Origin: Escherichia coli
GTDB taxonomy: Bacteria > Pseudomonadota > Gammaproteobacteria > Enterobacterales > Enterobacteriaceae
NCBI RefSeq assembly: GCF_044324875.1
Contig: NZ_CP172185.1
Length of the DNA: 64,000 nucleotides
Reading direction: 5' to 3' (one strand)
Shown here: one piece after another, positions 1-53,068 of the stretch
Numbering within the stretch: position 1 is the stretch's first letter
How the letters are laid out: every line of letters begins with the position of its first letter
Translations under genes and position numbers: made by a program
The notes under the pieces: model-generated
Databases searched by the model: none
Told to the model about the DNA's origin: nothing
Seen by the model: the letters and a program-made list of their open reading frames with translations, nothing else

Positions 1-10
1 GCAGATAGGC

Positions 11-48
11 TAATAAAAGAACCCGAAGCCAGAACGACTGGCTTCGGG
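11..48 (-). terminator. Rho-independent terminator downstream of dsbI
   Basis: Inverted repeat cccgaagccag/ctggcttcggg (about 22-48) followed on the minus strand by a T-rich tail (ttcttttatt), just past the dsbI stop. Confidence 0.55.
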
Positions 49-58
49 TGTTGCTGAG

Positions 59-730
59 TTAGCCTCTGACGATTTTAAGCGCCCATGCGCCACTCATAAT
101 GACCAGCAGCACCAGACACATACCAAAAGCCAGCATACAAGCCTGAGCCATATTCATAAAATGCCATGGTGGTAGCAGATACCAGCCTTCAGATTGCTGA
201 TACATTTCCACAAACCACTGTTGCGTGCTGCTCAGTGTGACGCCATCAGGAACGATTGGGGCGTCATAGCCGCAATCCCCGGTAGGCTTGAACCAATTTG
301 GTGCCCACTGTGCCAGTGGCAGGTTAAAGGGAAAAGTTGGATCGGTAGAGCAACCCTGTACGCCAAACAGTGAATCGGGATCCGGATTATGTACTGCATG
401 GTGGATATCGTTCAGTTTGAGCGAAAACTTCAGTCCCAAAATGCTGCCGTAAAATGCCATCACGCAGCCAATTAGCTTTAGGATGATGTTCTTTGGGTTG
501 ATCGCTGCAACCAATCCTCCAATAACCATCACAAACATGGCGTAGCGAATGTATACACATTGCTCACAGGGTGCCATGTAGAGATAGATCTGGAAGAAAG
601 AGTGCGCCAGGATAATTAACGCGCCCATCGCAATGGCCATTAACAACCACAAAAAACGTTGTTCTTGCCATCTTACCAGCGTATCCACCGGTGAAGTGCG
701 AAGGTCTTTCCACATTCCCTTAATACCCAT
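59..730 (-). CDS. dsbI: DsbB-like disulfide oxidoreductase DsbI (membrane protein)
   Basis: 223-aa ORF with multiple hydrophobic segments and paired cysteines (CEQC); last gene after assT and dsbL. Family assignment from recall. Confidence 0.8.
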
Positions 731-744
731 AGCCTGTTTCCCTG

Positions 745-1413
745 TTATTTGCTTGCTAACTCGCGGATAAGGTCTGCCATTGAGTCAATAGATTTAATAC
801 TCTTGGTGTAGATCAGGTATTTACCATTGACGACATACGCCGGAACGCCCTGGATTTTTGCAACTTCATAAGAGGCTTTCCATTTTTCCAGTGTTTCTTG
901 AACCGCTGGTTCTTTCAGTGCCGCTTCAAAATCCGCCTGACTCATACCTGCGGCATCCAGACCGGTTTTGATAAAAGCAGCCGGATCTTTACCATCAGAC
1001 CAGCGTTCTTTTTTGTCATGATAAGCCGCGTAATAAGCAAACTTGGCTTTCTTAAACTGAGAGTTAGCATCAAATAAGGAAATGCCTGCTGCTTTATCTT
1101 TATTGATCAAGACCGCAAAGACTTCGCTTGCTTGTTTGCCGTATTCACCTTTTGTTTCCAGATGGAATGGAGTAAAAGCAACGATATCTTTCACTTTTTC
1201 CGATACCGGACCGGTAACCGCTTTGTCGTACTTGTAACAGAACGGGCAGGCGTAGCTAAATACCTTAATCAGCGTTTTGTCGGCATTCGGAATAGGTTTT
1301 TCCAGAACCATGTAATCCGTGCCTTCGGTAAATGCAGAAGCGGTAAATGAAACAGCCAAAGCTGCGGTAAGCAGTATGGTTTTAAATAGTGATGAGATCC
1401 CTAATTTCGACAT
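745..1413 (-). CDS. dsbL: Periplasmic thiol:disulfide oxidoreductase DsbL (DsbA-like)
   Basis: 222-aa ORF with N-terminal signal peptide and CPFC thioredoxin-type active site ([10 protein letters not shown]); sits between assT and dsbI. Confidence 0.8.
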
Positions 1414-1430
1414 TTTTATTCCCTTCTTAA

Positions 1431-3227
1431 TTATTTGAACATCTGTTGTGGACGGACTAACAGTGCACGATAGTGAGTCTGATTGGGTTTATCTGACAGC
1501 ACGTCGATTTCCACTTTCACTTCTTTGGTTTTGTAATCGATTTCGTTCAACTTACCGACGGTTGGCTGCCCGACATCGAACAAATGAATAGAACCACCGA
1601 AGCCAAACATGGTGTTACGGTCGGCTTGATATTCAATGATGGAGGTAATCGGGCTATAGAAATCGTAGCCACGTTCTTTACCGTATTCCCACACTTGCTG
1701 AACGGTGCCTTTCTTCTCATCAATCTTATATTCCACAAAGCGGGAGTATTTCATGGTTGGTAAGGCAGGTTGTTCCAGATGACGCCCATCGCCATTATCA
1801 AAAATGGTGAGCGTTCCTTTGCTGGAAATCCAGGCGGTATGCTGGGTGTAGGTAAAGTCGAAGTCTGAGTTTTCGCACAGGCCATTTTCGTTACAGGTAA
1901 TTGGCTTCCCGTTAGCATCAACCGGTTTCAGCAGCTTGCTGGCCAGCGGTTTTTCCCAACCTTTAGAGGGCGCAAGGATCCATTTCACTTGCTTATCACG
2001 ACCAATTTTCACAACACCCTGGTGGCGAGAGGAGAGGATGATTGAGTCATCTTTTGCGTCATAGGCGATTGAGTTAACGTGCGCCCAGTTACGACCTGGC
2101 CCTACACCCAGCGCGTCGCCGAACGGTGTATCTGGTTCCAGTTTTGCCTGTTGTCCTGCATGGGCAAGGTCAACGTTAACGCAAACTGCACCTGCATCCA
2201 GCGCGCCGAGCAGTGCATCGCGTTTCGGATCGAGGATCTTGGTCAGATCCCATACATCGACAACGCGACCAGATTTATCGACTTCGAGGATATGGTCACG
2301 AATGGTGGTGACGTGTACGCCGTCATCGCGACGGTAATTGCTCTTACCTACGCGCAACAATACTGTGCCATTAGGCGTCTCAATGGACTCATGAGTGGCG
2401 TCAGCAAATCCGCGCGGTAGTTTGTGATCTTCGAGCACCTGCCCCATCATGTCGAACTCGTACCAGTGCTGACCTTGTACAGCGGTAAAGGTGCCGCGTG
2501 GTGTTTCGCGGATACCCATCAGATAACCACGCTTGTTGATATCGCGGTCACGACCATCGTAGAAGGTGTTTTGATCCAACCACCAGCGGTATTCGCCTTC
2601 GGTATCGACGATAAAGGTGAATGGCGCGATATCAAAAGGGAGTGCGCCAGTTGCCGGACCCGCATCAAGGATACCGGCATTTTTATCTTTCTCACCATGC
2701 CAGTGGAGATCGGAACCTTGGGCGGTAAAGGTGTGGGTATTAACCAGATAGAGGCGATCTTCAAAACCCGGTGCGACTTTAATAACTTTGGTCTGTTGTA
2801 AATCGGAGATAGAGCGGTTATCCATGTAATTATTGACGATGGCCGAAGTGTGCACCACATAATCATCTTTCATGACCTTGCCGTTTTCTTTCCACTCAAC
2901 GGTCACTTTGTTAGCAAATTTCTGATAAAGACCAAAAATCGGTACACCATCATAAGTTTTTAGTGATTCCTGACCCACGGGATAGCTGATTTCTACGCCT
3001 TTTTCGCCCTTCCCATGGACGGTAACTTTGACATCAGAAATGACATGGCTATCTAAGTCAACCAAAGCGGTCAGTGGTGCATTGCCGTAGGGATCGACAA
3101 TGACCGCACCCAGTTGCCCGGCAGGTGGTGCGGGTTTAAAACCTGCTGCCATCACCCCCGGTGCTGACAAACCCAGAGTTATCGCCACAGCTCCGGCTAC
3201 CAGAGTTTTTCTATATTTATCAAACAT
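1431..3227 (-). CDS. assT: Periplasmic arylsulfate sulfotransferase AssT
   Basis: 598-aa ORF with signal peptide (MFDKYRKTLVAGAVAITLGLSAPGVMAAG); size and sequence fit the AssT family; first gene of an assT-dsbL-dsbI arrangement. Confidence 0.8.
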   Translation of the reverse strand: MFDKYRKTLVAGAVAITLGLSAPGVMAAGFKPAPPAGQLGAVIVDPYGNAPLTALVDLDSHVISDVKVTVHGKGEKGVEISYPVGQESLKTYDGVPIFGLYQKFANKVTVEWKENGKVMKDDYVVHTSAIVNNYMDNRSISDLQQTKVIKVAPGFEDRLYLVNTHTFTAQGSDLHWHGEKDKNAGILDAGPATGALPFDIAPFTFIVDTEGEYRWWLDQNTFYDGRDRDINKRGYLMGIRETPRGTFTAVQGQHWYEFDMMGQVLEDHKLPRGFADATHESIETPNGTVLLRVGKSNYRRDDGVHVTTIRDHILEVDKSGRVVDVWDLTKILDPKRDALLGALDAGAVCVNVDLAHAGQQAKLEPDTPFGDALGVGPGRNWAHVNSIAYDAKDDSIILSSRHQGVVKIGRDKQVKWILAPSKGWEKPLASKLLKPVDANGKPITCNENGLCENSDFDFTYTQHTAWISSKGTLTIFDNGDGRHLEQPALPTMKYSRFVEYKIDEKKGTVQQVWEYGKERGYDFYSPITSIIEYQADRNTMFGFGGSIHLFDVGQPTVGKLNEIDYKTKEVKVEIDVLSDKPNQTHYRALLVRPQQMFK

Positions 3228-3670
3228 GGATATATCTCCTTATATAACGCAAATATATAATAATGATGAATATCGACTGTTGAGGTGGTGCTAATAAATT
3301 TGTTTTGTGAATTAAAATGTATTAATAATAATCGTTATGAATATTTTTACTGGTTTTAGATTTTTTGTATTTCTCTGTAACAAATATTTTCTTTTGGTCG
3401 ATACTAGGTGGGCAATATATCAATAACAATATTCAATATTGTGTAGTGTGATCCCAGCGACATTGTTTTTTAATTATTAAATCTATTTTTGATGCGGTGT
3501 TTGATATAAATAAACTTATAAAACAATAGGTTACAAAGTGATTTTATTGATTAATTTAATTACAGTATCGCTTACATATGACGATTTAATATTAAATTAG
3601 GAATTAATGTTAAATAAAAGTGATGGATGTGATTGATTATATATAGATGGGGGTGATGATTTGCGAAGTA
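3228..3670. promoter_or_regulatory. AT-rich noncoding region upstream of assT (promoter region)
   Basis: About 440 bp with no convincing ORF, visibly far more AT-rich than flanking genes; directly upstream of the assT start. Confidence 0.4.
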
Positions 3671-3700
3671 TAATAAATTGCCCCGGTAAACGGGGCAATA
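3671..3700 (-). terminator. Terminator hairpin downstream of ygiC
   Basis: ttgccccg-gtaaa-cggggcaa stem-loop (about 3678-3698) followed by tttattata on the minus strand, just past the ygiC stop. Confidence 0.5.
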
Positions 3701-3710
3701 TTGAACAGTA

Positions 3711-4871
3711 TTACTCAACAAAAATATGCGGATAAAACCGAGACATATCCTGGGTGATCAACGCACGGTCTTCACGAATGCCAATTCCGGCAGGTTGATC
3801 GTTCACCAGCCAGCTACCAATCAGCATATAGCTGTCGCCGAATTTCGGTAACGGGTGGAATTGCTGAACAATCATCCCTTCTTCGCCATACGGACCTTCC
3901 GCTGCTTCAATGGTTTTGCCGTTCTCAATGATCGACACGTTTGCGCCTTCACGGGAGAAGAGCGGTTTAACCACATATTTTTCCATTTGCGGATGATCAT
4001 CTTCCGCAAAATAAGCGGGCAGCAGGTTCGGGTGATTCGGGAACATCTCCCACAACAGCGGTAGAAGCGCTTTGTTGGAGATAATGCTCTTCCACGCCGG
4101 TTCCAGCCAGCGTACGCCTGCATCCTCCAGCTTGGTGGAGAACATCTCACGCAGCATAAATTCCCACGGATACAGCTTGAACAGGTTAGAAATCACCTGA
4201 TCTTGTAAATCCGTGAACTGACCTTTTTCGCCTAAACCGATATCGTCGATGTAGAGGAATTCAGTAGCGATTTCAGCTTCTGTCGCGCAGTCCTGCAAAT
4301 ACTGGATGGTTCCGCGATCTTCCACCGTGTCGCGACAGCAGGTGAGATGCAGCAACTGGAAGCCATACTGTTCACGCAACTCGACAAAGCGATCGATTAG
4401 CTTTTCTTGCAGACTGTTAAACTGGTCGCTGCCTTCCGGCAGGTTACCGGCGTTAAGCTGATCTTCCAGCCAGATCCACTGAAAGAATGCGGCTTCATAC
4501 AGTGACGTTGGCGTATCGGCGTTATTTTCCAGAAGTTTAGGTTCGCCAGTACCATCCCACGCCAGATCAAGACGCGAATAAAGCGATGGCTGGTGAGTCA
4601 GCCATGACTGGCGCACAAAACTCCAGGTGTGTTTTGGAATGCGGAATTTGGTCATCAGCTCATCGCTGGCGATCACTTTTTCAACCACTTTCAGGCACAT
4701 CTGGTGCAGTTCGGCGGTGACTTCTTCCAGCTTTTCAACCTGGGCGAGGGTCAACTTGTAGTAAGCATCTTCACACCAGTACGGTTCGCCGTACATGGTG
4801 TGAAAATTGAAACCGTATTCGTGGGCTTTTTCGCGCCAGTCCGGGCGCTCGGTAATACTGACTCTTTCCAT
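3711..4871 (-). CDS. ygiC: Glutathionylspermidine synthase-like ATP-grasp protein YgiC
   Basis: 386-aa ORF matching E. coli YgiC in length and sequence as recalled; follows ygiB. Confidence 0.85.
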
Positions 4872-4876
4872 CGGTA

Positions 4877-5548
4877 TCAGCCACCCATTGAACGAGAAGA
4901 GGTGCCGGTTGCGCTACGCTGCATAGTGCTTTGTTTGGCAACAGATTCACCAAAACCGCCACGAGTAACGGTGGTGGTGGTTGCCGGTTTTGGTGCCATT
5001 GCCGTCTTCGGTACGGTCATGGTGCGGCCTGGCTGGGCTGCGCCATAGTTTTTACCGGTCGCGTCGGTATATTTACCGTAAGCCGGGCTGGCCGGGTTTT
5101 TCGAGGAGAACAGCGGCTGCTGTGCAAATCCCGCGCCGCCGCCCATCAGACGACCCATCATGTAACCGGCCATCAGCGGCATCCAGAAACTCCCGCTGGA
5201 TTGCTGGGCCTGCGCCTGGTTTTCTGGTGCCATGCCAGCCTGGGCTGGTGCCTGCTGGCACTGACCTTCACCAAATTCAGCAACACAGTCTTCACGGGTG
5301 GCGTATTTCGGCGCAGTACGTTCGGCTTCTTTCAGCGCATTGTTGTACGCGGTGGTACATTCGGCGCTTTTGCCTGGGTTTGCAGCTGAACAGTCGTCAG
5401 CATTTTGATAGAGAGACACTGTTTCATCACTCTTTTCACAGCCAGCCAGCATAAAAACAGTGGCAACCGCGAGAGCGACTGGTGTCAGATGGCGTGCGCT
5501 CCAGTTTTTGCGGAACGATGCGTGGCGTATGGATTTTGTCCGTTTCAT
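4877..5548 (-). CDS. ygiB: DUF1190 lipoprotein YgiB
   Basis: ORF 4877..5581 trimmed to the internal start [12 protein letters not shown] (223 aa); lipobox LAGC; Gly/Met-rich middle region. Confidence 0.8.
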
Positions 5549-5667
5549 TTTTGTCTTCCGGGACCAGTGGTAAATACCCATCAGAATAGAGGATGGCTGG
5601 TCGAAATTGAAGCGAGAAGGGGGAAGAATGCGGCAGATAACCCGTATCTTTACGTTGCCTTACGTTT

Positions 5668-5690
5668 AGACGGGGCCGAAGCCCCGTCGT
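5668..5690 (-). terminator. Stem-loop downstream of tolC
   Basis: gacggggc-cgaa-gccccgtc hairpin just past the tolC stop, followed on the minus strand by an A/T-rich stretch. Confidence 0.45.
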
Positions 5691-5695
5691 AGTCA

Positions 5696-7177
5696 TCAGT
5701 TACGGAAAGGGTTATGACCGTTACTGGTGGTAGTGCGTGCGGATGTTTGCTGAACGACGGGTGCCGGGCTATCAGGCGCATAACCATCAGCAATAGCATT
5801 CTGTTCCGGCGTTTGCGGGGCAACGTTTTCCGGATTAGTGGAAACCGGTTTGCTCAGCGCATTGTTCAGTGCCAGCAGATCCTGCTCGTTCAACGTACCC
5901 AGGGCTGACTTAATATTCAGCTGATTAATCAGGTAGTTATAACGCGCATTCGCCAGCTCTTGCTTGGCGTTGTACAGCGTGGTGGTCGCATCCAACACAT
6001 CAACAATGGTACGCGTACCGACCGAGTAGCCCGCTTCCATCGCATCTAATGAGCTTTGAGCGGAAACTACGGCTTGTTTGTAGGCGTTAATGCTACTGAT
6101 AGAAGCATTAATGTTGTTGAAGGAGGAACGTACGGTTTGCACGACGCTACGATGGGCGCTTTCCAGTTGCTCACTGGCACCAACAAAGTTGTACTGGGCC
6201 TGTTTCACCTGCGAGTTAACCATTCCGCCCTGATAAATCGGCAGCGAGAAGCTCAGGCCAACTTTGTTCTGGCCCATATTGCTATCGTCATACTGGGTAC
6301 CAGCGGCACCTCGGGTTTTCGAACCGCTATATGAGGTGTCAGAAATCCCGGTAGAAGCCGTTAAATCCAGAGTCGGTAAGTGACCATCCTGCGCCTGGCG
6401 AATTTGCTCGCGCGCCAGGTCCTGGCTCAAGCGCGCCTGTAACAACGACAGGTTGCGTTTTTCGGCTTCTTTCAGCAGCGCGTTAACCGGCTGTGGTTTG
6501 TCGGTTTTAAAGTTTTCGACATTCAGCGCCGCCAGTTCCGGATAGTAGTTACCGGTGATCTGGCGCAGCTGCTCTACCGCGTTATCAAGGTTATTACGTG
6601 CGGTCACTTCGTTCGCCAGCACGGTATCGTACTGTGCGCGGGCGTTCTGCACGTCAGTGATCGCTACCAGGCCCACGTTAAAACGTTGGGTGGTTTGATC
6701 TAATTGACGGTAGATCGCTTCTTTTTGCGCCTGTGTATAGGAAAGAACGTCAATAGCATTCAACACGTTGAAATAAGCGGTCGCGGTGTTGAGGATCAAG
6801 GTTTGTTGATCGGTCTGATACGTGACGTCCTGAATCCCAGCTGCTTTTTCCTGCAGCGTTAACGCACGCCATTTCGACATATCAAAAATGGATTGAGTTA
6901 ACTGCAGGGACGCACTGGTCGCGTTAGAGTTGATGCCGTTCGCGTCGCGGTAGCCGTTGCTATAGGTGTAATCTGCACCTAAACCTAGCTGTGGCAGTAA
7001 TGGACTGCGCGCTTCATTAATTTTTTCAAAGGCAGCATCACGATCGGCGGCAGACTTACGCAATTCCGGGTTACTAAGGCGTGCTTGCTGATAAACTTGC
7101 ATCAGGTTCTCGGCCTGGCTCAACGAACTGAACCCAGAGAGGCTCAGGCCGATAAGAATGGGGAGCAATTTCTTCAT
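5696..7177 (-). CDS. tolC: Outer membrane efflux channel TolC
   Basis: ORF 5696..7216 trimmed to MKKLLPILIGLSLSGFSSLSQAENLMQVYQQA (493 aa); sequence is TolC along its whole length. Confidence 0.95.
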   Translation of the reverse strand: MKKLLPILIGLSLSGFSSLSQAENLMQVYQQARLSNPELRKSAADRDAAFEKINEARSPLLPQLGLGADYTYSNGYRDANGINSNATSASLQLTQSIFDMSKWRALTLQEKAAGIQDVTYQTDQQTLILNTATAYFNVLNAIDVLSYTQAQKEAIYRQLDQTTQRFNVGLVAITDVQNARAQYDTVLANEVTARNNLDNAVEQLRQITGNYYPELAALNVENFKTDKPQPVNALLKEAEKRNLSLLQARLSQDLAREQIRQAQDGHLPTLDLTASTGISDTSYSGSKTRGAAGTQYDDSNMGQNKVGLSFSLPIYQGGMVNSQVKQAQYNFVGASEQLESAHRSVVQTVRSSFNNINASISSINAYKQAVVSAQSSLDAMEAGYSVGTRTIVDVLDATTTLYNAKQELANARYNYLINQLNIKSALGTLNEQDLLALNNALSKPVSTNPENVAPQTPEQNAIADGYAPDSPAPVVQQTSARTTTSNGHNPFRN

Positions 7178-7381
7178 TTGCATTCCTTGTGGTGAAGCAG
7201 TATTTAGCGCGATCAAACTGTAAAATTATTGCGGATTCTAGCAGAAGCCGCTACCGCAAAAGGTTGGCGTTACGTGCCATAGGGCGTTAATGTGCCTCAA
7301 TTTAACACATGACTGCTCAAACGGCAGTCAAACGTCGCTGAAATTCACATTTAATTCACTATTAGTGCCAGGACATTAACA

Positions 7382-8011
7382 ATGCTTAAGCCAGACAACC
7401 TGCCCGTTACATTTGGCAAAAACGATGTAGAAATTATTGCACGAGAAACACTTTATCGCGGCTTTTTTTCATTAGATCTTTATAGATTTCGTCATCGTCT
7501 ATTCAACGGGCAAATGAGTCATGAGGTACGGCGGGAAATTTTTGAGCGCGGTCACGCCGCAGTCTTGCTACCCTTTGACCCAGTGCGTGATGAAGTTGTG
7601 CTGATTGAGCAGATTCGGATTGCCGCGTACGACACCAGCGAAACCCCCTGGCTACTGGAGATGGTTGCCGGGATGATTGAAGAGGGTGAAAGTGTGGAAG
7701 ATGTTGCCCGTCGCGAAGCGATTGAAGAGGCGGGACTGATAGTCAAACGGACCAAACCGGTGTTAAGTTTCCTGGCAAGCCCGGGGGGCACCAGTGAGCG
7801 TTCGTCAATTATGGTGGGCGAAGTGGACGCCACGACCGCAAGCGGTATTCACGGTCTGGCTGATGAAAACGAAGATATTCGCGTTCATGTGGTAAGCCGG
7901 GAACAGGCATACCAGTGGGTAGAAGAGGGGAAAATCGACAACGCAGCGTCGGTCATCGCTTTGCAATGGCTGCAGCTGCATCATCAAGCGTTAAAAAATG
8001 AGTGGGCATAA
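7382..8011 (+). CDS. nudF: ADP-ribose pyrophosphatase (Nudix hydrolase)
   Basis: 209-aa ORF with Nudix motif ([22 protein letters not shown]); divergent from tolC as in E. coli. Confidence 0.9.
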
Positions 8012-8434
8012 ATGAAGCGTTACACACCTGACTTTCCTGAAATGATGCGCCTGTGCGAGATGAACTTTTCGCAATTGCGCCGTTTGTTGCCGCGCAATGA
8101 CGCACCCGGCGAAACTGTAAGCTATCAGGTGGCAAACGCACAATATCGGCTAACGATTGTGGAATCGACCCGATACACTACCCTGGTGACAATAGAACAG
8201 ACTGCGCCCGCGATCAGTTACTGGAGCCTTCCGTCAATGACGGTGCGTCTGTATCATGACGCGATGGTGGCTGAAGTGTGTTCAAGCCAGCAGATTTTTC
8301 GCTTCAAAGCGCGGTATGATTATCCTAATAAAAAGTTGCATCAACGCGACGAAAAGCATCAAATTAATCAGTTTCTAGCGGACTGGTTGCGATACTGTTT
8401 AGCACATGGAGCGATGGCGATTCCGGTTTACTAG
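8012..8434 (+). CDS. yqiB: DUF1249 protein YqiB
   Basis: 140-aa ORF starting immediately at the nudF stop; conserved position between nudF and cpdA. Confidence 0.8.
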
Positions 8435-8458
8435 CGTCGTGAAACCTAAGGACACCAT

Positions 8459-9286
8459 TTGGAAAGCCTGTTAACCCTTCCTCTGGCTGGTGAGGCCAGA
8501 GTCAGGATTTTACAAATTACCGACACTCACCTGTTTGCGCAAAAGCACGAAGCCCTGTTAGGGGTAAACACCTGGGAAAGCTACCAGGCGGTGCTGGAGG
8601 CGATTCGGCCACACCAGCACGAATTCGACCTGATTGTCGCGACAGGTGATTTAGCGCAGGATCAATCCTCTGCGGCCTATCAGCATTTCGCTGAAGGCAT
8701 CGCAAGTTTTCGTGCGCCCTGCGTCTGGCTGCCGGGCAACCACGATTTCCAGCCCGCGATGTACAGCGCGTTACAGGATGCGGGTATCTCCCCGGCGAAG
8801 CGGGTGTTTATTGGTGAGCAATGGCAAATCCTGTTGCTGGATAGCCAGGTGTTTGGCGTGCCGCACGGTGAGCTGAGCGAGTTTCAGCTTGAGTGGCTGG
8901 AACGTAAACTGGCCGATGCGCCAGAACGCCATACGTTGCTGCTGCTGCATCATCATCCGCTACCTGCGGGTTGTAGTTGGCTTGATCAACACAGCCTGCG
9001 TAACGCGGGCGAACTGGATACCGTGCTGGCGAAGTTTCCGCACGTCAAATACTTGCTGTGCGGTCATATTCATCAGGAGCTGGATCTCGACTGGAACGGT
9101 CGCCGCCTGCTGGCAACGCCGTCGACCTGTGTGCAGTTTAAGCCGCACTGTTCCAACTTTACGCTGGACACCATCGCGCCCGGCTGGCGTACTCTCGAGT
9201 TACATGCTGATGGCACGCTGACCACCGAGGTGCATCGCCTGGCGGACACACGTTTCCAACCTGATACCGCTTCAGAAGGCTACTGA
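8459..9286 (+). CDS. cpdA: 3',5'-cyclic AMP phosphodiesterase CpdA
   Basis: 275-aa ORF with metallophosphoesterase motifs (GDLAQD, GNHD, CGHIH). Confidence 0.9.
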
Positions 9287-9867
9287 TGTCTACGCTTCTT
9301 TATTTACACGGTTTCAACAGCTCGCCGCGCTCTGCAAAAGCGAGCTTGTTAAAAAACTGGTTGGCGGAACATCACCCTGACGTAGAGATGATCATTCCGC
9401 AGTTGCCGCCGTATCCTTCCGATGCGGCAGAACTGCTGGAATCCATTGTCCTGGAACATGGCGGCGATTCGCTGGGTATTGTCGGTTCGTCACTGGGGGG
9501 ATATTACGCCACCTGGTTGTCGCAATGTTTTATGCTGCCCGCAGTGGTGGTCAACCCGGCGGTGCGCCCGTTTGAACTGCTGACGGACTATCTCGGTCAG
9601 AACGAGAACCCCTACACCGGGCAGCAATATGTGCTAGAGTCACGCCATATTTACGATCTCAAAGTCATGCAGATTGACCCGCTGGAAGCGCCGGATTTGA
9701 TCTGGCTGCTGCAACAGACGGGAGATGAAGTGCTGGATTACCGCCAGGCGGTGGCGTACTACGCTTCCTGCCGCCAGACTGTCATAGAAGGCGGCAACCA
9801 CGCATTCACGGGCTTCGAAGATTATTTCAACCCGATCGTCGATTTTCTTGGTCTGCACCATCTCTGA
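9286..9867 (+). CDS. yqiA: Esterase YqiA (alpha/beta hydrolase)
   Basis: 193-aa ORF overlapping the cpdA stop by 1 nt; GSSLGG nucleophile-elbow motif. Confidence 0.85.
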
Positions 9868-9892
9868 CGATCAACTCGAATTGCTAACTTAA

Positions 9893-11788
<1,896 letters not shown>

Positions 11789-11816
11789 TAATCCTCCCGC
11801 CAGAAGAATAAAACAT

Positions 11817-11851
11817 AGCCCGGTATACAAGTGTATACCGGGCTTTTTTGA
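11817..11851. terminator. Bidirectional terminator between parE and the receptor gene
   Basis: agcccggtatac-aagt-gtataccgggct perfect hairpin followed by tttttt; the receptor stop codon (11852-11854) abuts it. Confidence 0.6.
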
Positions 11852-13993
11852 TCAAAATTCCATTTTCACCGTGAATTGCACTTCACGCGGATCGCCAATC
11901 TGATTCCCCAGATTATTTGTGGCGATGGAAGAGGTGTAATACGTTTTATCAAACAGTTTTTTGACGTTTAATTGCAGTGTGACCGGATACTGCAATTTCA
12001 TTTTGTATGCGGCGAAGGCATCGGCAACGAAATAGCCTGGCAGATAATAGTCAGCCCCATTGGTTGCCGAACGACGGCTTACGCCATGTCCACCACCGCC
12101 AAACGTCAGTGTGTTATTGCCTGGCATGTTATGAATGTCATAGGTCAGGAATAGCGAACCGGTATGACGAGGAACATTCGGCAATGGTTTCCCTGCATAA
12201 TCAGGATCTTCCAGAACCTTAGCATCGGTATAGCCGTAGCTGGCAATGATATTAATGTTTTCAGTTAATGCTCCCGCAAGGTCGACTTCTACCCCTCTTG
12301 AACGAACGCGGCCTGCCGTTTTGGCGATGGTTTCATCACCAATACTTTCGGTATACAACACGTTACGTTTATGGATATCAAACAGCGCAATATCTGCGGT
12401 TATACCATCGAACAGCTCGAATTTTGCCCCGACTTCGTAAGCATTAGATGATTCCGGTGGAAGATCTCCGATGTAGCTGGCAATTGACGATTGCGGCATA
12501 AATGTTTGCGAATAATTAGCAAATAAGGATACCGATGGCGTCAGTTTGTAGACTAACCCCAGTTTGGGCGTCCATTGTTCATCGCGGCTGTCAGTATTGA
12601 CATTAAAAGGACGGCCTTTACCCGCATACTGCGTGTAATACTGATAGCGGATCCCGGCGACGGCAATCCAGTTATCGGTCAGATAGAGCGCGTCCTGTGC
12701 ATACGCTGAGTAGCTCTCCTGTTTGATCGTCTGATCGCTGTCCGACGCCGAGACAGTTGTGCATTTGCTGGTATTGCCGTAAACAGGGTTGTAGATATTG
12801 AAATCTTTAGCGTTTTTACAGCGAATCATATCTGTGCGCAGAAGATCATAATATTCATATGACACCCCACCCAGAATCTCATTATAGAACCCAGCAATAT
12901 CAACATTCCCTTGCAGATCCGCACGAGTAGCATGCATACGCTGGGTAGATCCCTGAGTTGCATCAACACGCCGTGTCAGCGTTCCTGTCGTTGCATCATA
13001 CGCGGTAACACGAGCCTGATTATCGCCGTATTTATCCTGGCTGTAGCTGTAATCAAAGCGCGCTGTCCACTGGCTATTGAGATGATATTCTGCGTTGAGT
13101 TGCGCCAGATCGGACTGACCATCTGTAATATTAAACGGTTCGTCAAAACGTATTTTTCGATCAACGTTTACGGGCTGTTTCGTCGTAAGGTCGAAAATCG
13201 TTCCACGATCGAACGGAGTTTTATAATCCCGATGGGAATAGAGCATGGTTACTGTTGCATTATCACCAAACCAGGTGAGTGATGGGGCAATAAATGTACT
13301 GCGCTCTTTACCAAAGTTTCGCCAGTAATCTTCATCCTGCACTTCCCCGGTAAGGCGATACGCCAGTTGAGTGCCTTCAATGGGGCCAGTGATATCAAGT
13401 TGCCCGGTGCCACCACCGAAACTGGAGGACGTGGCTGAGACAGAACCATGGAATGTTTTTTCCGGGCGTTTGGTCACGACGTTAATCAATCCACCAGGAT
13501 CGAGAATGCCATACAGCGTGGAGGCCGGGCCTTTTAGCACTTCCACACGTTCTGTGGCGGCGTTGAAACTGCGAGGAAGTACAGTTCGCAGGCCGTTGGT
13601 CATGATGGAGCCATCCCGGTTAGCACCAAACCCACGACGTACAAAGGCGTCCTGAGTTCCGCCTAATGTATTGGTCTGTACCACGTTACTGACGTTATAA
13701 AGCGCTTCATCCAGCGTCGTTGCATTCTGATTTTCCAGAACCTGATCGCTAACCGTATTGACCACCTGCGGGATATCCAGCATCGGCATATCGGTTAATG
13801 TCGCCGTGGAGGTGCTCAGAGGTTGATAACCATCGGTTGCTTCAGTTGCGGTATTTGCATCTGCTGTAACAGTGATTGTTTCGCCATCTTTGGTCGTTAC
13901 AGAGTCTGTTGCATGAATCATCGGTGCCGCAAAAAGCAGTGAAAAGAGCGCCCGACCTTTGAGTCCTGAGAATGAAGGTGTGAACATAGCCAT
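11852..13993 (-). CDS. TonB-dependent outer membrane siderophore-type receptor
   Basis: 713-aa ORF with signal peptide, TonB-box-like ETITVTA near the N-terminus, plug-domain motifs and a C-terminal aromatic residue (..TVKMEF). Resembles the fit system receptor (tentative). Confidence 0.85.
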   Translation of the reverse strand: MAMFTPSFSGLKGRALFSLLFAAPMIHATDSVTTKDGETITVTADANTATEATDGYQPLSTSTATLTDMPMLDIPQVVNTVSDQVLENQNATTLDEALYNVSNVVQTNTLGGTQDAFVRRGFGANRDGSIMTNGLRTVLPRSFNAATERVEVLKGPASTLYGILDPGGLINVVTKRPEKTFHGSVSATSSSFGGGTGQLDITGPIEGTQLAYRLTGEVQDEDYWRNFGKERSTFIAPSLTWFGDNATVTMLYSHRDYKTPFDRGTIFDLTTKQPVNVDRKIRFDEPFNITDGQSDLAQLNAEYHLNSQWTARFDYSYSQDKYGDNQARVTAYDATTGTLTRRVDATQGSTQRMHATRADLQGNVDIAGFYNEILGGVSYEYYDLLRTDMIRCKNAKDFNIYNPVYGNTSKCTTVSASDSDQTIKQESYSAYAQDALYLTDNWIAVAGIRYQYYTQYAGKGRPFNVNTDSRDEQWTPKLGLVYKLTPSVSLFANYSQTFMPQSSIASYIGDLPPESSNAYEVGAKFELFDGITADIALFDIHKRNVLYTESIGDETIAKTAGRVRSRGVEVDLAGALTENINIIASYGYTDAKVLEDPDYAGKPLPNVPRHTGSLFLTYDIHNMPGNNTLTFGGGGHGVSRRSATNGADYYLPGYFVADAFAAYKMKLQYPVTLQLNVKKLFDKTYYTSSIATNNLGNQIGDPREVQFTVKMEF

Positions 13994-14093
13994 TTAGTCT
14001 GTTATCCCAAAAACTCGCGGATTGTCGCGAGTGAAAATTGTTTCTTATTGCTCACTAAGCACTATCCGTTTGTTATTTCGCCATCGGATATGT

Positions 14094-14114
14094 AATTGAG
14101 AATCATTCAATCAT
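14094..14114. promoter_or_regulatory. Candidate Fur box in the divergent receptor/ABC promoter region
   Basis: aattgagaatcattcaatcat partially matches the Fur consensus GATAATGATAATCATTATC; lies in the AT-rich 13994-14366 intergenic region. Match judged by eye only. Confidence 0.3.
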
Positions 14115-14366
14115 GCGGTAATGTAGTAGTAAATGAGAAATAACAAAAAATTGCTACATGTGTTTTTATGAGAGGTTAATGCAATTCAATTGATGGTAAT
14201 TTATTAATATTTAATGATTTTATTTTTATCTTTAAAAAAATTTCACCTGTTATTTACCTTGTTTTTGTATGGCTTTTAACTTCTTGACTACTACATTTTG
14301 TGGCGTCAAACTCTCAAAGGAGAATGAGTTTTATTTTTGTTTGTCTTTGATTAAGTTGGCGTACAC

Positions 14367-15176
14367 GTGGCACATAACGCAAAAGGGCAGGGGCTGATCC
14401 TCGACAATGTTTCTGCCGGGTATCACAAGAAAATCATTGTTGATGGTGTTTCTTTCTCCGTTCCCACAGAAAAAATGACCGTTCTGGTTGGGGCAAACGG
14501 CTGTGGAAAGTCGACGTTGCTCAGCACCATTGCACGTATCTTGCAACCTATGGGCGGCTCGATATTGCTGGATGGTAAAGCGATTCACGAGCAACCAACG
14601 AAAGCGTTATCCCGTAGACTTGGGATCTTGCCGCAGTCGCCATTATTGCCGGAGGGCTTAACCGTTTATGAACTGGTGTCGCGTGGGCGTTTTCCCTGGC
14701 AGAATTTCATTCGTCAATGGAGCGACGCCGACGAGCAGGCGGTAGAAGAGGCCCTGAAATTAACCGGTACGCAGGAGTTTGCACATTTACCTGTTGAAAA
14801 ACTTTCTGGTGGGCAGCGCCAGCGTTGCTGGATTGCGATGGTGTTGGCGCAAAAGACGCCTTATATCCTACTGGATGAACCCACAACCTGGCTTGATTTA
14901 CGTTATCAGGTTGAAATTCTTGAGTTATTACATGATTTAACGCGTCATCACGGGCGTACAGTCGTCGTGGTGTTGCATGATCTGAATTTTGCCGTCAATT
15001 ATGGTGATACGTTGATATTTTTACGCCAGGGGAAAGTGGTGCGTGTGTTGAATGAGGGGGAGCATTGCACGCCTGAGCTGGTAAAAGCTGTCTTTGACGT
15101 TGATGTTCACGCATCAATAAATCCTCTGACGGGAAAGCCGTTCTTCATGCCGTTTCGTGGTGTAGAAAAAGTATGA
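14367..15176 (+). CDS. Iron-siderophore-type ABC transporter ATP-binding protein
   Basis: 269-aa ORF (GTG start) with Walker A GANGCGKST, signature LSGGQRQR and Walker B ILLDEPTTWLD. Confidence 0.9.
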   Translation: MAHNAKGQGLILDNVSAGYHKKIIVDGVSFSVPTEKMTVLVGANGCGKSTLLSTIARILQPMGGSILLDGKAIHEQPTKALSRRLGILPQSPLLPEGLTVYELVSRGRFPWQNFIRQWSDADEQAVEEALKLTGTQEFAHLPVEKLSGGQRQRCWIAMVLAQKTPYILLDEPTTWLDLRYQVEILELLHDLTRHHGRTVVVVLHDLNFAVNYGDTLIFLRQGKVVRVLNEGEHCTPELVKAVFDVDVHASINPLTGKPFFMPFRGVEKV

Positions 15177-16156
15177 TGCGCACAGGGCTGGTTACTGTAA
15201 TTTTCCTCGCCTTACTGCTGGTGGGATGCGTGGTATATCCAGGGATTGGTGCCCGATTTATTGCACCACAAACGGTGTTGCAGGCATTTCTTCATTTTGA
15301 TCCGCAAAACTTCGATCACAACGTAATTGTAAGACTCCGTTTGCCGCGTTTAGCGGCAGCATTGCTTACCGGTGCTTCTCTTGGAGTTGCTGGTGCTTTG
15401 TTGCAGGCTGTCATTCGTAACCCATTGGGGGAGCCACATATTTTAGGCTTAAATGCCGGAGCCGCTCTTGCTGTCGTTGCTGCCAGTGCGCTTGGGCTGG
15501 CCTTTCCGGTTGGACGCCCACTGCTGGCATCTACGGGCGGCGCGTTATTGTTCCTGTTGATATTGCTGCTTTCCTCCGCAGGGCGTTCAGGGTTAACGCC
15601 AATGAAAGTTACTTTATGCGGCGTGGCGCTATCGGCGTTCGTGTCCTCAATAACGGCTGCAATCCTGATTCTTGACGAACAAACACTGCTGGCGATGCGG
15701 ACATGGCTAGCAGGTGATTTAGCGGGGCAGGATTGGGCGACGCTGGGTACGTCCGCCTGGTTTTCTCTGGGGGGATTTGTGTTAGCCCTTTACCTTGCAC
15801 CCTCCCTTAACATGTTGGCACTGGGCGATCGCATGGCGCAGGGGCTGGGCGTCTCTGTACTCCGCACGCGAACATTCACCCTGCTTGCGATCGCGTTGCT
15901 CTGTGGCGCAGCCGTATCGATTGCTGGCCCCATTGGTTTTGTCGGCCTGCTAGTACCGCAGATTGTCCGGCGTCTGGTATCAGCGGATCTGCGCGTTCTG
16001 CTCCCTCTTTCAGCTTGTGTCGGCGCGCTTTTGTTATTACTGGCAGATATTATTGCCCGGACGCTTTTCACGCCCCATGAGTTAGCGACCGGTGTCATGA
16101 CGGCGTTAGTTGGTGCGCCTGTTTTTGTCATTATGGCGACGAGGATGTTCAAATGA
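15173..16156 (+). CDS. ABC transporter permease (FecCD family)
   Basis: 327-aa polytopic membrane ORF; start overlaps the ATPase stop by 4 nt. Confidence 0.85.
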   Translation: MMRTGLVTVIFLALLLVGCVVYPGIGARFIAPQTVLQAFLHFDPQNFDHNVIVRLRLPRLAAALLTGASLGVAGALLQAVIRNPLGEPHILGLNAGAALAVVAASALGLAFPVGRPLLASTGGALLFLLILLLSSAGRSGLTPMKVTLCGVALSAFVSSITAAILILDEQTLLAMRTWLAGDLAGQDWATLGTSAWFSLGGFVLALYLAPSLNMLALGDRMAQGLGVSVLRTRTFTLLAIALLCGAAVSIAGPIGFVGLLVPQIVRRLVSADLRVLLPLSACVGALLLLLADIIARTLFTPHELATGVMTALVGAPVFVIMATRMFK

Positions 16157-17202
16157 GTCGGATAATGAACGTCGGGCTACGCCCACTACGTGTTGGTAAG
16201 TTTTCGACACTGGTACGCCCTAAAAATCTGGTGTTGCTTGGTGGGTTGTTTCTGTTTGCGGTTGGAATACTGATATTCGGTCTGATGCAGGGTTCTTTCT
16301 CCGTCCCGGCATCGGAAGTAGGACGAGCATTGTTCTCTCCAGAAAACGTAAGCACAGACGCACGTTATATTGTGCAGGATATTCGCTTGCCGAGAGTCAT
16401 CATGGCATTGCTATGCGGGGCCATGTTAGGTATGGCGGGGGCCGCGATGCAATCCATTGCGCGTAACGGCCTTGCCGATCCTGGTTTAATCGGCGTCAAA
16501 GAAGGATGTAGCGTGGCGGTGCTGTGGCTGATTTTCCAGTTTCCAATGCTGGGAATGTTCTGGCGTCCAGTGGCTGGTCTTGCTGGTGGCTTGTTGGTGG
16601 CTTTAATCGTGATTTTTTGTGCGCGCGATATTTCCCGCCCGCGATTTGTTCTGATTGGTATTGGTGTTTCCTGGTTTTTCGCCGCCGGTATCGGTGTATT
16701 TATGACCACTGCAGATGTTCGAGATGTACAAACTGCATTGATGTGGTTATCGGGAAGCCTGCATGCAGCTAACTGGATGTTAGTCGGTATTTCAGCCTGT
16801 TGGATGTTGCCAGCCGCTCTTTTATTGCTGTTCACCGCCAGGGCGGCGGATATCGCTCTGCTTGGTCATCAGGTTGCAACCGGGTTAGGGGTGAATAGTT
16901 CTCGTCTGGCGTTGTTACGTGTCGCCGCACCCATAATCCTGACAGCCGTCTGCGTTTCGTGTGTTGGTAACATCGGTTTTGTCGGATTGATAGCACCCCA
17001 TATATCACGTTTTATTCTACGTGGCGGGCAGACGACATTACTGCTGGGGAGCGCCGTATCGGGGGCGTTGTTAGTCATCCTGGCGGATAGCATTGGTCGT
17101 TTGGCTTTTTTGCCTTTGCAACTGCCTGCCGGAATCATTATTTCATTGATTGGTGGACCATTCTTTTTGCTACTGCTCTGGCAGCGCAGGAACAGTTTTT
17201 AA
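16153..17202 (+). CDS. ABC transporter permease (FecCD family), second subunit
   Basis: 349-aa polytopic membrane ORF overlapping the previous permease stop by 4 nt; paralogous to it. Confidence 0.85.
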   Translation: MSRIMNVGLRPLRVGKFSTLVRPKNLVLLGGLFLFAVGILIFGLMQGSFSVPASEVGRALFSPENVSTDARYIVQDIRLPRVIMALLCGAMLGMAGAAMQSIARNGLADPGLIGVKEGCSVAVLWLIFQFPMLGMFWRPVAGLAGGLLVALIVIFCARDISRPRFVLIGIGVSWFFAAGIGVFMTTADVRDVQTALMWLSGSLHAANWMLVGISACWMLPAALLLLFTARAADIALLGHQVATGLGVNSSRLALLRVAAPIILTAVCVSCVGNIGFVGLIAPHISRFILRGGQTTLLLGSAVSGALLVILADSIGRLAFLPLQLPAGIIISLIGGPFFLLLLWQRRNSF

Positions 17203-17212
17203 TGGGAGTTAT

Positions 17213-18160
17213 ATGCGTTTATTTTTTTCTCTGCTGATACTGTTGTCATTCTTTGCCCGCGCGACAGAACCTGTTCAGGTCTTTACTGATGATTTAGGGC
17301 GCAAAGTCACTGTTCCTGCTCATCCAAAGAGAATTGTCTCTTTACACGATCTTGATATCACTATTCCTCTGATTGAGCTCGGTGTACCTCCTGTCGCCAG
17401 CCACGGGCGAACCCGGCCTGACGGTAGCCATTTCATTCGATCAGGCGCGTTATTGACAGGTGTCGACTTTGATAATTCATCGATCGCTTTTATTGGCACC
17501 GCTGATATTGATATTGAAGCGATTGTGGCGGCAAAACCTGACCTGATCATCACAGAACCGACCCGTAATACGCCCATTGAACAACTGGAAAAAATTGCGC
17601 CCACGGTGAGCATTGATCATCTCAAAGGAGGCGCGCCAGAAATCTACCGCAAGCTGGCAGAACTTACAGGAACGCAGTCGCAGCTGGCGATACTTGAACG
17701 CCGCTATCAGGCACAAATCAATGCGCTGAAGGCGACGCTGGACAGCCAAAAAATAACGGTATCGGTGATTCAGGCAAATCAGGGAAAAATTAATGTGATG
17801 CATAGCTATCATTCGCTGGGGCGGGTATTACGCGATGCTGGTTTTCGCTTTCCGCCGCTGATTGAGAGCATTCCTGAAGGTGGGCGAATGGATGTGAGCG
17901 CAGAGCGTTTACCTGAACTGGATGCCGATTTTGTTTTTGCAACCTGGCGCGGTGACACCGGTGGTAAACCTCAGGATGAGCTGGCAGCAATGGAAAAAGT
18001 CATGCCGGGATGGTGTCAGTTTCTGACGGCCTGTCGTTCCGGGCGCTATGTGCTGATTTCTCGTGAAGAGGCGATTTCTAACTCCTTTGCATCTCTGGGG
18101 CTGATGGCTGCGCAGATACAATCACAAATTGCGGGACGACCTCTACCGGAGGCTAAATGA
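17213..18160 (+). CDS. Periplasmic substrate-binding protein (siderophore/cobalamin-type)
   Basis: ORF 17150..18160 trimmed to MRLFFSLLILLSFFARA, which has a signal peptide and an upstream gggag RBS; class III binding-protein-like sequence. Confidence 0.8.
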   Translation: MRLFFSLLILLSFFARATEPVQVFTDDLGRKVTVPAHPKRIVSLHDLDITIPLIELGVPPVASHGRTRPDGSHFIRSGALLTGVDFDNSSIAFIGTADIDIEAIVAAKPDLIITEPTRNTPIEQLEKIAPTVSIDHLKGGAPEIYRKLAELTGTQSQLAILERRYQAQINALKATLDSQKITVSVIQANQGKINVMHSYHSLGRVLRDAGFRFPPLIESIPEGGRMDVSAERLPELDADFVFATWRGDTGGKPQDELAAMEKVMPGWCQFLTACRSGRYVLISREEAISNSFASLGLMAAQIQSQIAGRPLPEAK

Positions 18161-19044
18161 TCCAGAAAGACAAAACGCGGGTTGATATTTATGGTGAGCG
18201 TTTTCGCACTCGCGCGAGTCAGTTAACGCCTGGGTTAAGAACTGTCGCAAGCTACATTAATGAGCATCGTGAAGTGGTACTCGAGCAAACGGCGATGGAA
18301 ATTGCGGCCACGTTGAACACTTCCGATGCCACAGTTATCAGGGCTATACAGGCTCTGGGGTTTGCCGGGCTGCGTGATCTGAAACGCACTCTGGAACAGT
18401 GGCTTGGTCCAGCCCTTAGTTCCAGCGAAAAGATGTCTACGACGGTGAGTAACTTGACGAGCGATGTTAACACCGCAATCGACTTTGTTCTTGAAGGGCA
18501 TTTGTATACTTGTAATGTCCTGTCAGAGCCTGAAAACCGCCACGCGCTTGCGCAAGCTGTAGCGTTGTTGGTGCAGGCACGGCAAGTCGCTATTTTTGGC
18601 ATTGGCGCTTCGGGTATCCTGGCGGACTATACCGCACGACTATTCAACCGCATAGGTTTGCCTGCCACGGCACTAAACCGTACGGGTATTGGCCTTGCCG
18701 AGCAACTGATCGCGCTTCAACGTGGCGATGTTCTGATCATGATGGCGCAAAAATCTGCGCACCGGGAAGGGCTGACAACGCTTCGTGAGGCGAGGCGGCT
18801 GGGGATCCCTGTTATTTTGCTGACAAACGCGCTGGATTCACGTTTTAGCAAAGACGCCAGTATCGTGATTCATGTTCCGCGCGGGGATGAAAAGGGGAAA
18901 ACGCCACTACATGGTACGGTATTGTTGTGCCTGGAAATGATTGTTTGGTCGGTGGCTTCCGCGATGCCGCAGCGTGCGGTTAAAACCATTAAGCGAATTA
19001 ACGATTTCCATCGGGGTTTGAAAACGGGAAGAAAGAATGGCTAA
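18157..19044 (+). CDS. RpiR/MurR-family transcriptional regulator (HTH plus SIS domain)
   Basis: 295-aa ORF overlapping the binding-protein stop by 4 nt; N-terminal helix-turn-helix region and C-terminal SIS-like Rossmann segment (VAIFGIGASGILADY). Confidence 0.75.
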   Translation: MIQKDKTRVDIYGERFRTRASQLTPGLRTVASYINEHREVVLEQTAMEIAATLNTSDATVIRAIQALGFAGLRDLKRTLEQWLGPALSSSEKMSTTVSNLTSDVNTAIDFVLEGHLYTCNVLSEPENRHALAQAVALLVQARQVAIFGIGASGILADYTARLFNRIGLPATALNRTGIGLAEQLIALQRGDVLIMMAQKSAHREGLTTLREARRLGIPVILLTNALDSRFSKDASIVIHVPRGDEKGKTPLHGTVLLCLEMIVWSVASAMPQRAVKTIKRINDFHRGLKTGRKNG

Positions 19045-52777: not shown

Positions 52778-52792
52778 TACATGTTGTAGCAA

Positions 52793-52826
52793 CCCTGCAC
52801 TGATTATGAAGAATAATCAGTGCAGG
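52793..52826 (+). terminator. Perfect 15-bp inverted repeat immediately downstream of gss
   Basis: ccctgcactgattat-gaag-ataatcagtgcaggg; the T-tract after it is weak (attaatcaaaat), so terminator function is uncertain. Confidence 0.45.
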
Positions 52827-53068
52827 GATTAATCAAAATATTCAATATTTATATATTCCAATATTTATTCATTTCATATGTGAATGTATTAACCAGTGGA
52901 ATACCTGTGTTTTGATTATTTCTAAAGGTTTTGAATGAATGCTTATTATCTGATACACAAGAAATAACACGCTTTTTATCGTTAAAAAATGATATTTCAC
53001 TTTGCCCACGCCGTTAAAGTCACTGATAATGCGTCCGTTCGTAAATTCAAAATGGCGTAATCTAATAT

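Follow-up and report, generated by a model that had tools for sequence, protein, structure and literature searches.

Between ygiD and ygiC, Escherichia coli contig NZ_CP172185.1 carries three genes that are missing from this site in K-12, together with an upstream region of very low GC content. The question raised by this locus is whether it represents a small island of foreign origin typical of pathogenic strains, or an older constituent of the genome which some E. coli lineages have lost; an earlier note, made from the letters alone, had favored the former. We examined a 64,000-nt stretch of the contig (hereafter the window, position 1 being its first letter), in which positions 14-3710 hold the known assT-dsbL-dsbI operon. 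With good confidence, this segment constitutes a self-contained ~3.7-kb cassette, its three genes lying between an AT-rich regulatory region and a terminator of their own, which is old in Escherichia and which K-12 has most probably lost.

The three open reading frames (ORFs) of the module are co-oriented on the minus strand, separated by gaps of 17 nt (assT/dsbL) and 14 nt (dsbL/dsbI), and are the only ORFs listed between the flanking genes. Matches to PDB, NCBIfam and Pfam entries bore out the identities given in the earlier note, namely an arylsulfate sulfotransferase and a dedicated DsbA/DsbB-like pair. Over its full length AssT matches the crystallized CFT073 enzyme (PDB 3ELQ/3ETS/3ETT) at 570 of 571 mature residues, and the 27 residues directly preceding the first residue of the crystallized mature protein, MFDKYRKTLVAGAVAITLGLSAPGVMA, form its signal peptide. 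An Ig-like N-terminal domain (PF17425, E 9e-29) is followed by an Arylsulfotrans beta-propeller domain (PF05935, E 1e-135), corresponding to the Ig-like beta-sandwich and six-bladed beta-propeller of ASST cluster I, and His436, His252, His356, Arg374, Tyr96 and the Cys418-Cys424 pair all occur at the expected mature positions. DsbL matches CFT073 DsbL (PDB 3C7M) at 193 of 195 residues, as well as DsbL of S. Typhimurium (3L9U, E 1e-121) and the Pfam DSBA family, and carries its active-site CPFC at residues 56-59. DsbI was assigned to the NCBIfam DsbI equivalog NF003304 at 418.8 bits (cut-off 212), also matches Pfam DsbB, and possesses the cysteine pairs C55-x-x-C58 (CEQC) and C127/C153. The operon in CFT073 (there assT(astA)-dsbL-dsbI; Grimshaw et al. 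2008 J Mol Biol; Malojcic et al. 2008/2014) has the same genes, order and spacing, and its catalytic and disulfide residues are identical to those of the window; the system is thus one already known and well studied.

Like the DsbA/DsbB pair of K-12, DsbL and DsbI combine a thioredoxin-fold oxidase with a quinone-linked membrane re-oxidase, and they match DsbA and DsbB models, respectively. Unlike that pair, DsbL, at 78 bits, does not reach the DsbA equivalog threshold of 279, and DsbI, which scores 82.8 bits against a DsbB equivalog cut-off of 157, belongs to a separate equivalog family. They also differ from DsbA/DsbB in being dedicated to AssT, whose single disulfide is essential, and in being co-transcribed with assT from the same operon (PMC6067686; PMC13426309).

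At the corresponding site MG1655 has only a 37-bp ygiC-ygiD spacer, which forms a hairpin, and the absence from K-12 that the earlier note had mentioned is thereby confirmed. Relative to K-12, the entire stop-to-stop spacer is swapped for 3,697 bp in the window, with neither common sequence nor direct repeats at the junctions. Of the 5,426 complete E. coli genomes surveyed, 1,508 (~28%) carry the full module and 3,917 (72%) have the K-12-type empty junction, while a single genome matched neither query; the distribution is hence patchy, and no third state of the site was observed among these genomes. The flanks of empty sites differ by up to 4% among E. coli lineages. Carriers include Nissle (EcN), IHE3034, ST131, Seattle 1946 and APEC O1, with isolation sources spanning human faeces, cattle, poultry, gulls, milk and water. 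EcN, IHE3034, ST131, ATCC 25922 (Seattle 1946) and APEC O1 belong to phylogroup B2, and in EcN the module lies between ygiC and ygiD, as it does in the window. The closest match to the window, strain M00057, is a Shiga-toxin-producing strain of sequence type ST69 (O77g:H18). Since the carriers thus include the Nissle strain as well as faecal, animal and water isolates and a Shiga-toxin-producing ST69 strain, the module follows lineage rather than pathotype.

Two further features of module-bearing genomes were observed. The 1,510 module matches among the complete genomes include one on a plasmid-classed record, and one genome has two copies. An ST2747 strain of E. coli (L007:5382-6751) carries IS150 inside dsbL, providing an example of module inactivation.

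Signs of recent import were sought in codon usage, divergence and mobility functions. When the likelihood of synonymous codons was calculated with 42 core genes from the window as the reference, assT and dsbL matched the core mean and dsbI scored -1.6 sd, which is within range; by the same test, the genes of a fit-like iron-uptake locus further along the window are clear outliers. The comparison of composition and codon usage with core genes which the earlier note had recommended therefore returned native-like usage, with the GC content at third codon positions (GC3) of dsbL as the only atypical value in the module. Synonymous divergence (dS) between a window-like allele and EcN ranges from 0.09 to 0.17 for assT, dsbL and dsbI, compared with 0.14 for ygiC, 0.15 for ygiD, 0.09 for zupT and 0.05-0.06 for tolC and ygiB, and dN/dS of the three module genes is ~0.02-0.06. 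No tRNA genes were found in positions 1-12000 of the window, no integrase or transposase is encoded among the module ORFs, and a search of the flanks for repeats left by insertion returned only short chance matches. The palindrome CAATATTG, present twice, was considered as an insertion repeat and rejected, being kept neither in the B2 haplotype nor in other genera.

The fit-like iron-siderophore uptake locus itself lies at 11852-19044, between parE and ygiN, and encodes a TonB-dependent receptor, an ABC ATPase, two FecCD permeases, a binding protein and an RpiR-family regulator; EcN and M00057 also carry it at this position.

Synteny across genera, examined with one genome per species, places the module in one of two slots. 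At ygiC|ygiD it was identified in E. albertii, E. whittamii, Escherichia sp. MOD1-EC7003 and the divergent 'E. coli' SCPM-O-B-8794 (hereafter SCPM), and in Pseudocitrobacter, such that the module is not missing from this site in close relatives, as a genomic island would be, but present there in four other Escherichia lineages. At zupT|ribB it was identified in six Citrobacter species representatives, S. arizonae and Intestinirhabdus, with a seventh Citrobacter contig showing the ribB side only. These slots are ~2 kb apart within the same tolC-ribB neighborhood, and no mobility genes are present. Compared with the window, the Salmonella enterica cluster (represented by S. arizonae) encodes AssT, DsbL and DsbI of 86%, 88% and 85% identity, and shares with it an AT-rich leader with common core motifs, the terminator hairpin and the tolC-ribB neighborhood; the Salmonella and Citrobacter cassettes differ in their position at zupT|ribB. 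A terminator hairpin of the form CCGAAGCC...GGCTTCGG follows dsbI in both slots, in Escherichia, Citrobacter, S. arizonae and Intestinirhabdus. The zupT-ribB spacer of E. coli was searched for a remnant of the cassette; its homology to Salmonella and Citrobacter was confined to the yqiD region and a short segment next to ribB, and it looks like an empty site. Overall, we read the cassette as having been at ygiC|ygiD for at least as long as the genus Escherichia has existed, and the K-12 state is best read as a loss of the cassette and not as an ancestral state that received a pathogen island, a direction which we infer.

The AT-richness upstream of assT noted earlier is real (26.5% GC), although the region spans 483 bp and not 440 bp. 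The lowest-GC 483-bp stretch of the window falls here, with a minimum of 0.248 against a mean of 0.510 (sd 0.043), ~6 sd below. Other stretches of the window with GC content of at most 0.35 are 13851-14518, the divergent promoter region of the fit-like locus, and 52600-53286, the gss-pitB spacer. Low GC content upstream of assT was found in all 18 loci examined: the 450 bp preceding the gene are mostly 23-33% GC, rising to 38-40% in Intestinirhabdus and Edwardsiella, where the loci are 56-60% GC, and always lie ~14-27 points under the locus average. Because leader and terminator accompany the genes in every genus examined, the AT-rich region is, on sequence grounds, a conserved regulatory part of the cassette and not a signature of recent import.

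An alignment of 10 leaders from five genera, drawn from both chromosomal slots, identified GATCACA, TA.TAT, the first TT of the -35 hexamer TTGTTA and most of AAAACAATGT as invariant in 10/10 sequences, and the core containing these motifs is also kept between the two E. coli haplotypes described below. We propose that TTGTTA and TAGTAT, as the -35 and -10 elements, form the core promoter, with a predicted start near 3395 and a leader of ~167 nt; a sigma-70 scan scored this candidate pair at 8/12, under the scan threshold, and returned no strong promoter in the conserved core. Folding of the leader RNA (3397..3205) gave no structure beyond that of shuffled sequences (z +0.4), an Rfam scan of positions 1-4000 at E<=1 returned zero matches, and none of the small ORFs within the upstream region exceeds 49 aa. 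In C. amalonaticus (L018:~7790-7950) and Intestinirhabdus (L023), a GC-rich insertion of ~100-170 bp, longer in C. amalonaticus, interrupts the leader of assT shortly before the ribosome-binding site, and may be a small repeat element.

The upstream region has the extended AT-rich regulatory DNA expected of a promoter that is silenced by H-NS and antagonized by LeuO. Three matches to the high-affinity H-NS motif TCGATAAATT (at most 2 mismatches) occur within it, in a 64-kb window where the count of such matches barely exceeds that of shuffled sequences. For the orthologous operon of S. Typhi, a passage of PMC4264507, citing Gallego-Hernandez 2012, states that H-NS represses and LeuO activates; among the systems compared here, such control has been shown only for this operon of S. 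Typhi IMSS-1. By analogy, we infer, in addition to the promoter position, that the upstream region in E. coli is plausibly a promoter region likely to be controlled by H-NS and LeuO.

Within E. coli, the upstream region occurs as two sharply distinct haplotypes. The coding regions of window and EcN are 2.3-3.6% divergent; against the B2 allele the coding DNA diverges by ~2.5-3.5%, with nearly all changes being synonymous. The upstream region, by contrast, differs between window and EcN at 103 of ~470 aligned positions with a further 15 gap columns, giving ~77% identity and K=0.255; the B2 allele, in other words, has a different upstream haplotype. Over the 1,508 carriers the distribution is bimodal, with 261 genomes sharing at least 95% identity with the window, 1,247 at 76-78%, and none between. 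As a control, K between window and EcN was determined for 18 other intergenic regions and found to range from 0 to 0.151 with a median of ~0.01; the maximum belongs to a spacer of 44 bp that borders the fit-like locus, and the next value, 0.056, to a 373-bp promoter region of 31% GC. As the latter, at 31% GC, shows a K of only 0.056, AT-richness alone does not explain the upstream divergence. The window-type region is 88.6% identical to that of E. whittamii and 76.4% to the B2 type, and for the B2 type the most similar region is that of the SCPM lineage (84%). Conversely, the assT coding sequences of all E. coli alleles group together, at 94.5-98% identity, compared with 91-93% to E. whittamii and SCPM.

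Recombination has also shaped the locus. LCP30S3_I5 is a mosaic that combines a window-type upstream region and assT with B2-type dsbL and dsbI. E. coli AR_451 possesses a third, divergent assT allele (dS 0.16 and ~12 amino acid changes relative to EcN), while its dsbL, dsbI and ygiC are near-identical to those of EcN, which indicates recombination within the operon. Positions 1-6000 of the window, encompassing the module, ygiC and ygiB, differ from M00057 by 2 nt, as against 0.3-4.4% per 2-kb bin over 6001-49770, and over 38-62 kb none of the complete E. coli genomes exceeds 99.0% identity; for these reasons we regard the source strain as a recombination mosaic of a poorly sampled lineage. 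Alleles of the module move among E. coli lineages through homologous recombination in the flanking core genes.

How firmly the loss of an old cassette in K-12 can be held depends on several observations that weigh against it. Occupation of two different slots implies either at least one relocation or independent acquisition. The junctions show no deletion scar, the whole 37-bp K-12 spacer being unrelated to either end of the cassette, and since this spacer is a hairpin resembling the REP-like (repetitive extragenic palindromic) hairpins of Salmonella and Citrobacter ygiC-ygiD spacers, the empty site could be the older state at this slot. E. fergusonii, E. marmotae and E. ruysiae did not appear in the one-genome-per-species scan. 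AssT, DsbL and DsbI of Pseudocitrobacter resemble their E. coli counterparts slightly more than the core proteins of this genus would predict, which hints at some transfer between genera, and the GC3 of dsbL is low (0.417, against 0.578 +/- 0.048 for core genes). This last value, the very AT-rich 483-bp end, the presence of the module in just 28% of complete genomes with absence from K-12, the atypical codon usage of the nearby iron-uptake locus and a published description in which commensal and enteric pathotypes lack DsbL/DsbI (PMC6067686) are what would be expected of a small horizontally acquired islet between ygiC and ygiD, typical of extraintestinal pathogenic E. coli and marked as foreign by its AT-rich end. 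Such an origin is nonetheless very improbable, being largely refuted by the presence of the module in the same slot of four other Escherichia lineages. It is further contradicted by native-like codon usage, by dS values equal to those of flanking core genes, by the failure to find an integrase, tRNA gene or repeats, and by an AT-rich region with invariant motifs that is kept with the operon across Enterobacterales. The horizontal acquisition proposed in the earlier note is therefore not upheld, and the extraintestinal-pathogen-like background that it drew from the module and the iron-uptake locus is weak, given a range of carriers that extends from a probiotic strain to animal and water isolates and the ST69 strain most similar to the window.

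Were the empty ygiC-ygiD junction instead the ancestral state in E. coli, the module might have been re-introduced into B2, D and other lineages by homologous recombination from other Escherichia, possibly repeatedly, giving rise to the two upstream haplotypes. The affinities of these haplotypes to E. whittamii and SCPM, the resemblance of the K-12 spacer to those of genera without the module at ygiC|ygiD, and the recent recombination around the module, with mosaic alleles inside it, would all agree with such a history. We consider it unlikely, however, as the E. coli coding alleles group together, as dS matches that of flanking genes so that any import must be old or confined to the intergenic region, and as the divergence among empty-site flanks implies that both states are old. 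A still less probable proposition is that the AT-rich region is a largely unconstrained spacer, the haplotypes of which reflect rapid neutral decay and not regulatory alleles. Much of the region does differ between haplotypes and species, and it has neither an Rfam family nor a stable leader structure; neutral decay fits poorly, however, with a K about 2x local dS and 4.5x that of the 373-bp, 31% GC promoter region in the same strain pair, with a bimodality so sharp that zero of 1,508 genomes fall at 80-95% identity, and with blocks of 60-85 bp kept across genera. Loss of an old cassette from K-12 remains our favored explanation. We offer more tentatively, at somewhat less than even chances, that the haplotypes may be two ancient assT regulatory alleles older than the surrounding coding sequences, which would have arisen either by introgression of a promoter or as a trans-species polymorphism and would confer lineage-specific expression programs, and that the cassette may have moved between ygiC|ygiD and zupT|ribB with no recognizable mobility function.

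The features of the module and its borders are collected in Table 1. Both hairpins that the earlier note had described as terminators bracketing the module were recovered and fold better than any of their 200 shuffles: the one after dsbI at -23.5 kcal/mol (z -7.9) and the one after ygiC at -15.1 kcal/mol (z -4.2). The former is common to the convergent ygiD and belongs to the cassette; the latter has the same stem in both E. coli haplotypes, and a loop that differs.

Table 1. Coordinates of the assT-dsbL-dsbI module and its flanks in the window.
Feature	Position	Strand	Description and basis
ygiD, last 13 nt including TAA stop	1..13	+	Convergent core gene, right-hand module border; annotation of M00057 (99.9%-identical strain) and K-12 junction comparison
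Intrinsic terminator after dsbI	21..49	-	12-bp stem ACCCGAAGCCAG/CTGGCTTCGGGT followed by T-run; terminator scan and folding
dsbI	59..730	-	223 aa; NCBIfam, Pfam, cysteine pairs
dsbL	745..1413	-	222-aa precursor; PDB and Pfam matches, CPFC
assT (astA)	1431..3227	-	598-aa precursor; PDB and Pfam matches, catalytic residues
AT-rich upstream region	3228..3710	-	483 bp from assT ATG to ygiC stop, 26.5% GC; dimorphic in E. coli
Proximal leader and ribosome-binding block	3228..3299	-	Last ~60 nt identical in both E. coli haplotypes; TATATAAGGAGATATATCCATG kept across genera; alignments
Conserved core	3400..3482	-	AAAACAATGT at 3469..3460, GATCACA at 3453..3447, candidate sigma-70 promoter
Candidate promoter in conserved core	-35 TTGTTA 3429..3424; -10 TAGTAT 3406..3401	-	17-nt spacer; conservation
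Distal conserved AT-rich block	3555..3618	-	TTTATTTAACATTAAT ... AATTTAATATTAAATCGTCATATG; upstream limit of homology to Salmonella/Citrobacter cassette
ygiC intrinsic terminator	3677..3699	-	9-bp stem ATTGCCCCG/CGGGGCAAT, left-hand border; terminator scan, alignment, folding
ygiC	3711..4871	-	Flanking core gene, context only, outside module

While the sequence identities, catalytic residues, distribution, synteny and divergence reported above derive from the present analysis, the mechanism of the enzyme, the specificity of DsbL/DsbI and the H-NS/LeuO control in Salmonella are taken from the literature, and together they permit a working model of the operon. Transcription of assT would most likely start in the conserved core of the AT-rich region, and, by analogy with S. 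Typhi, would probably be held low by H-NS and relieved by LeuO or under specific conditions. As predicted from its Sec signal peptide, AssT would leave the cytoplasm for the periplasm, where DsbL would introduce its one essential disulfide, Cys418-Cys424, and DsbI, an inner-membrane paralogue of DsbB, would re-oxidize DsbL and pass the electrons to quinones. Judging from its residues, the folded enzyme would then transfer the sulfuryl group from phenolic sulfate esters to phenolic acceptors via sulfo-His436, with no need for 3'-phosphoadenosine-5'-phosphosulfate (PAPS), consistent with the PAPS-independent, ping-pong reaction through sulfo-His436 described for AssT (PMC13426309). DsbA/DsbB is able to replace DsbL/DsbI, and chromosomal assT is silent in CFT073 under laboratory conditions, with induction reported in the urine of infected mice (PMC7810732). 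A B2 transcriptome paper makes no mention of assT.

Of the features of this locus, only the upstream dimorphism is mildly novel. Oren et al. are said to have described, in PNAS in 2014, alternative intergenic (promoter) variants that switch between E. coli strains, under the term 'horizontal regulatory switching'. The assT locus is similar in having two sharply distinct variants of one intergenic region between conserved genes, discordant with the coding sequence; it differs in that the locus itself is also a presence/absence polymorphism, and in that its variants are known from sequence alone.

The assT-dsbL-dsbI operon is a textbook case both for specialized disulfide-bond systems and for the sulfation of phenolic compounds and drugs by gut bacteria. 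The findings presented here correct a common inference, in that an AT-rich end and absence from K-12 do not by themselves point to a pathogen-specific island; the operon is best read as ancestral in Escherichia, with loss in many lineages. They also identify the dimorphic promoter region as a modest lead on the exchange of regulatory alleles at a promoter of the H-NS type.

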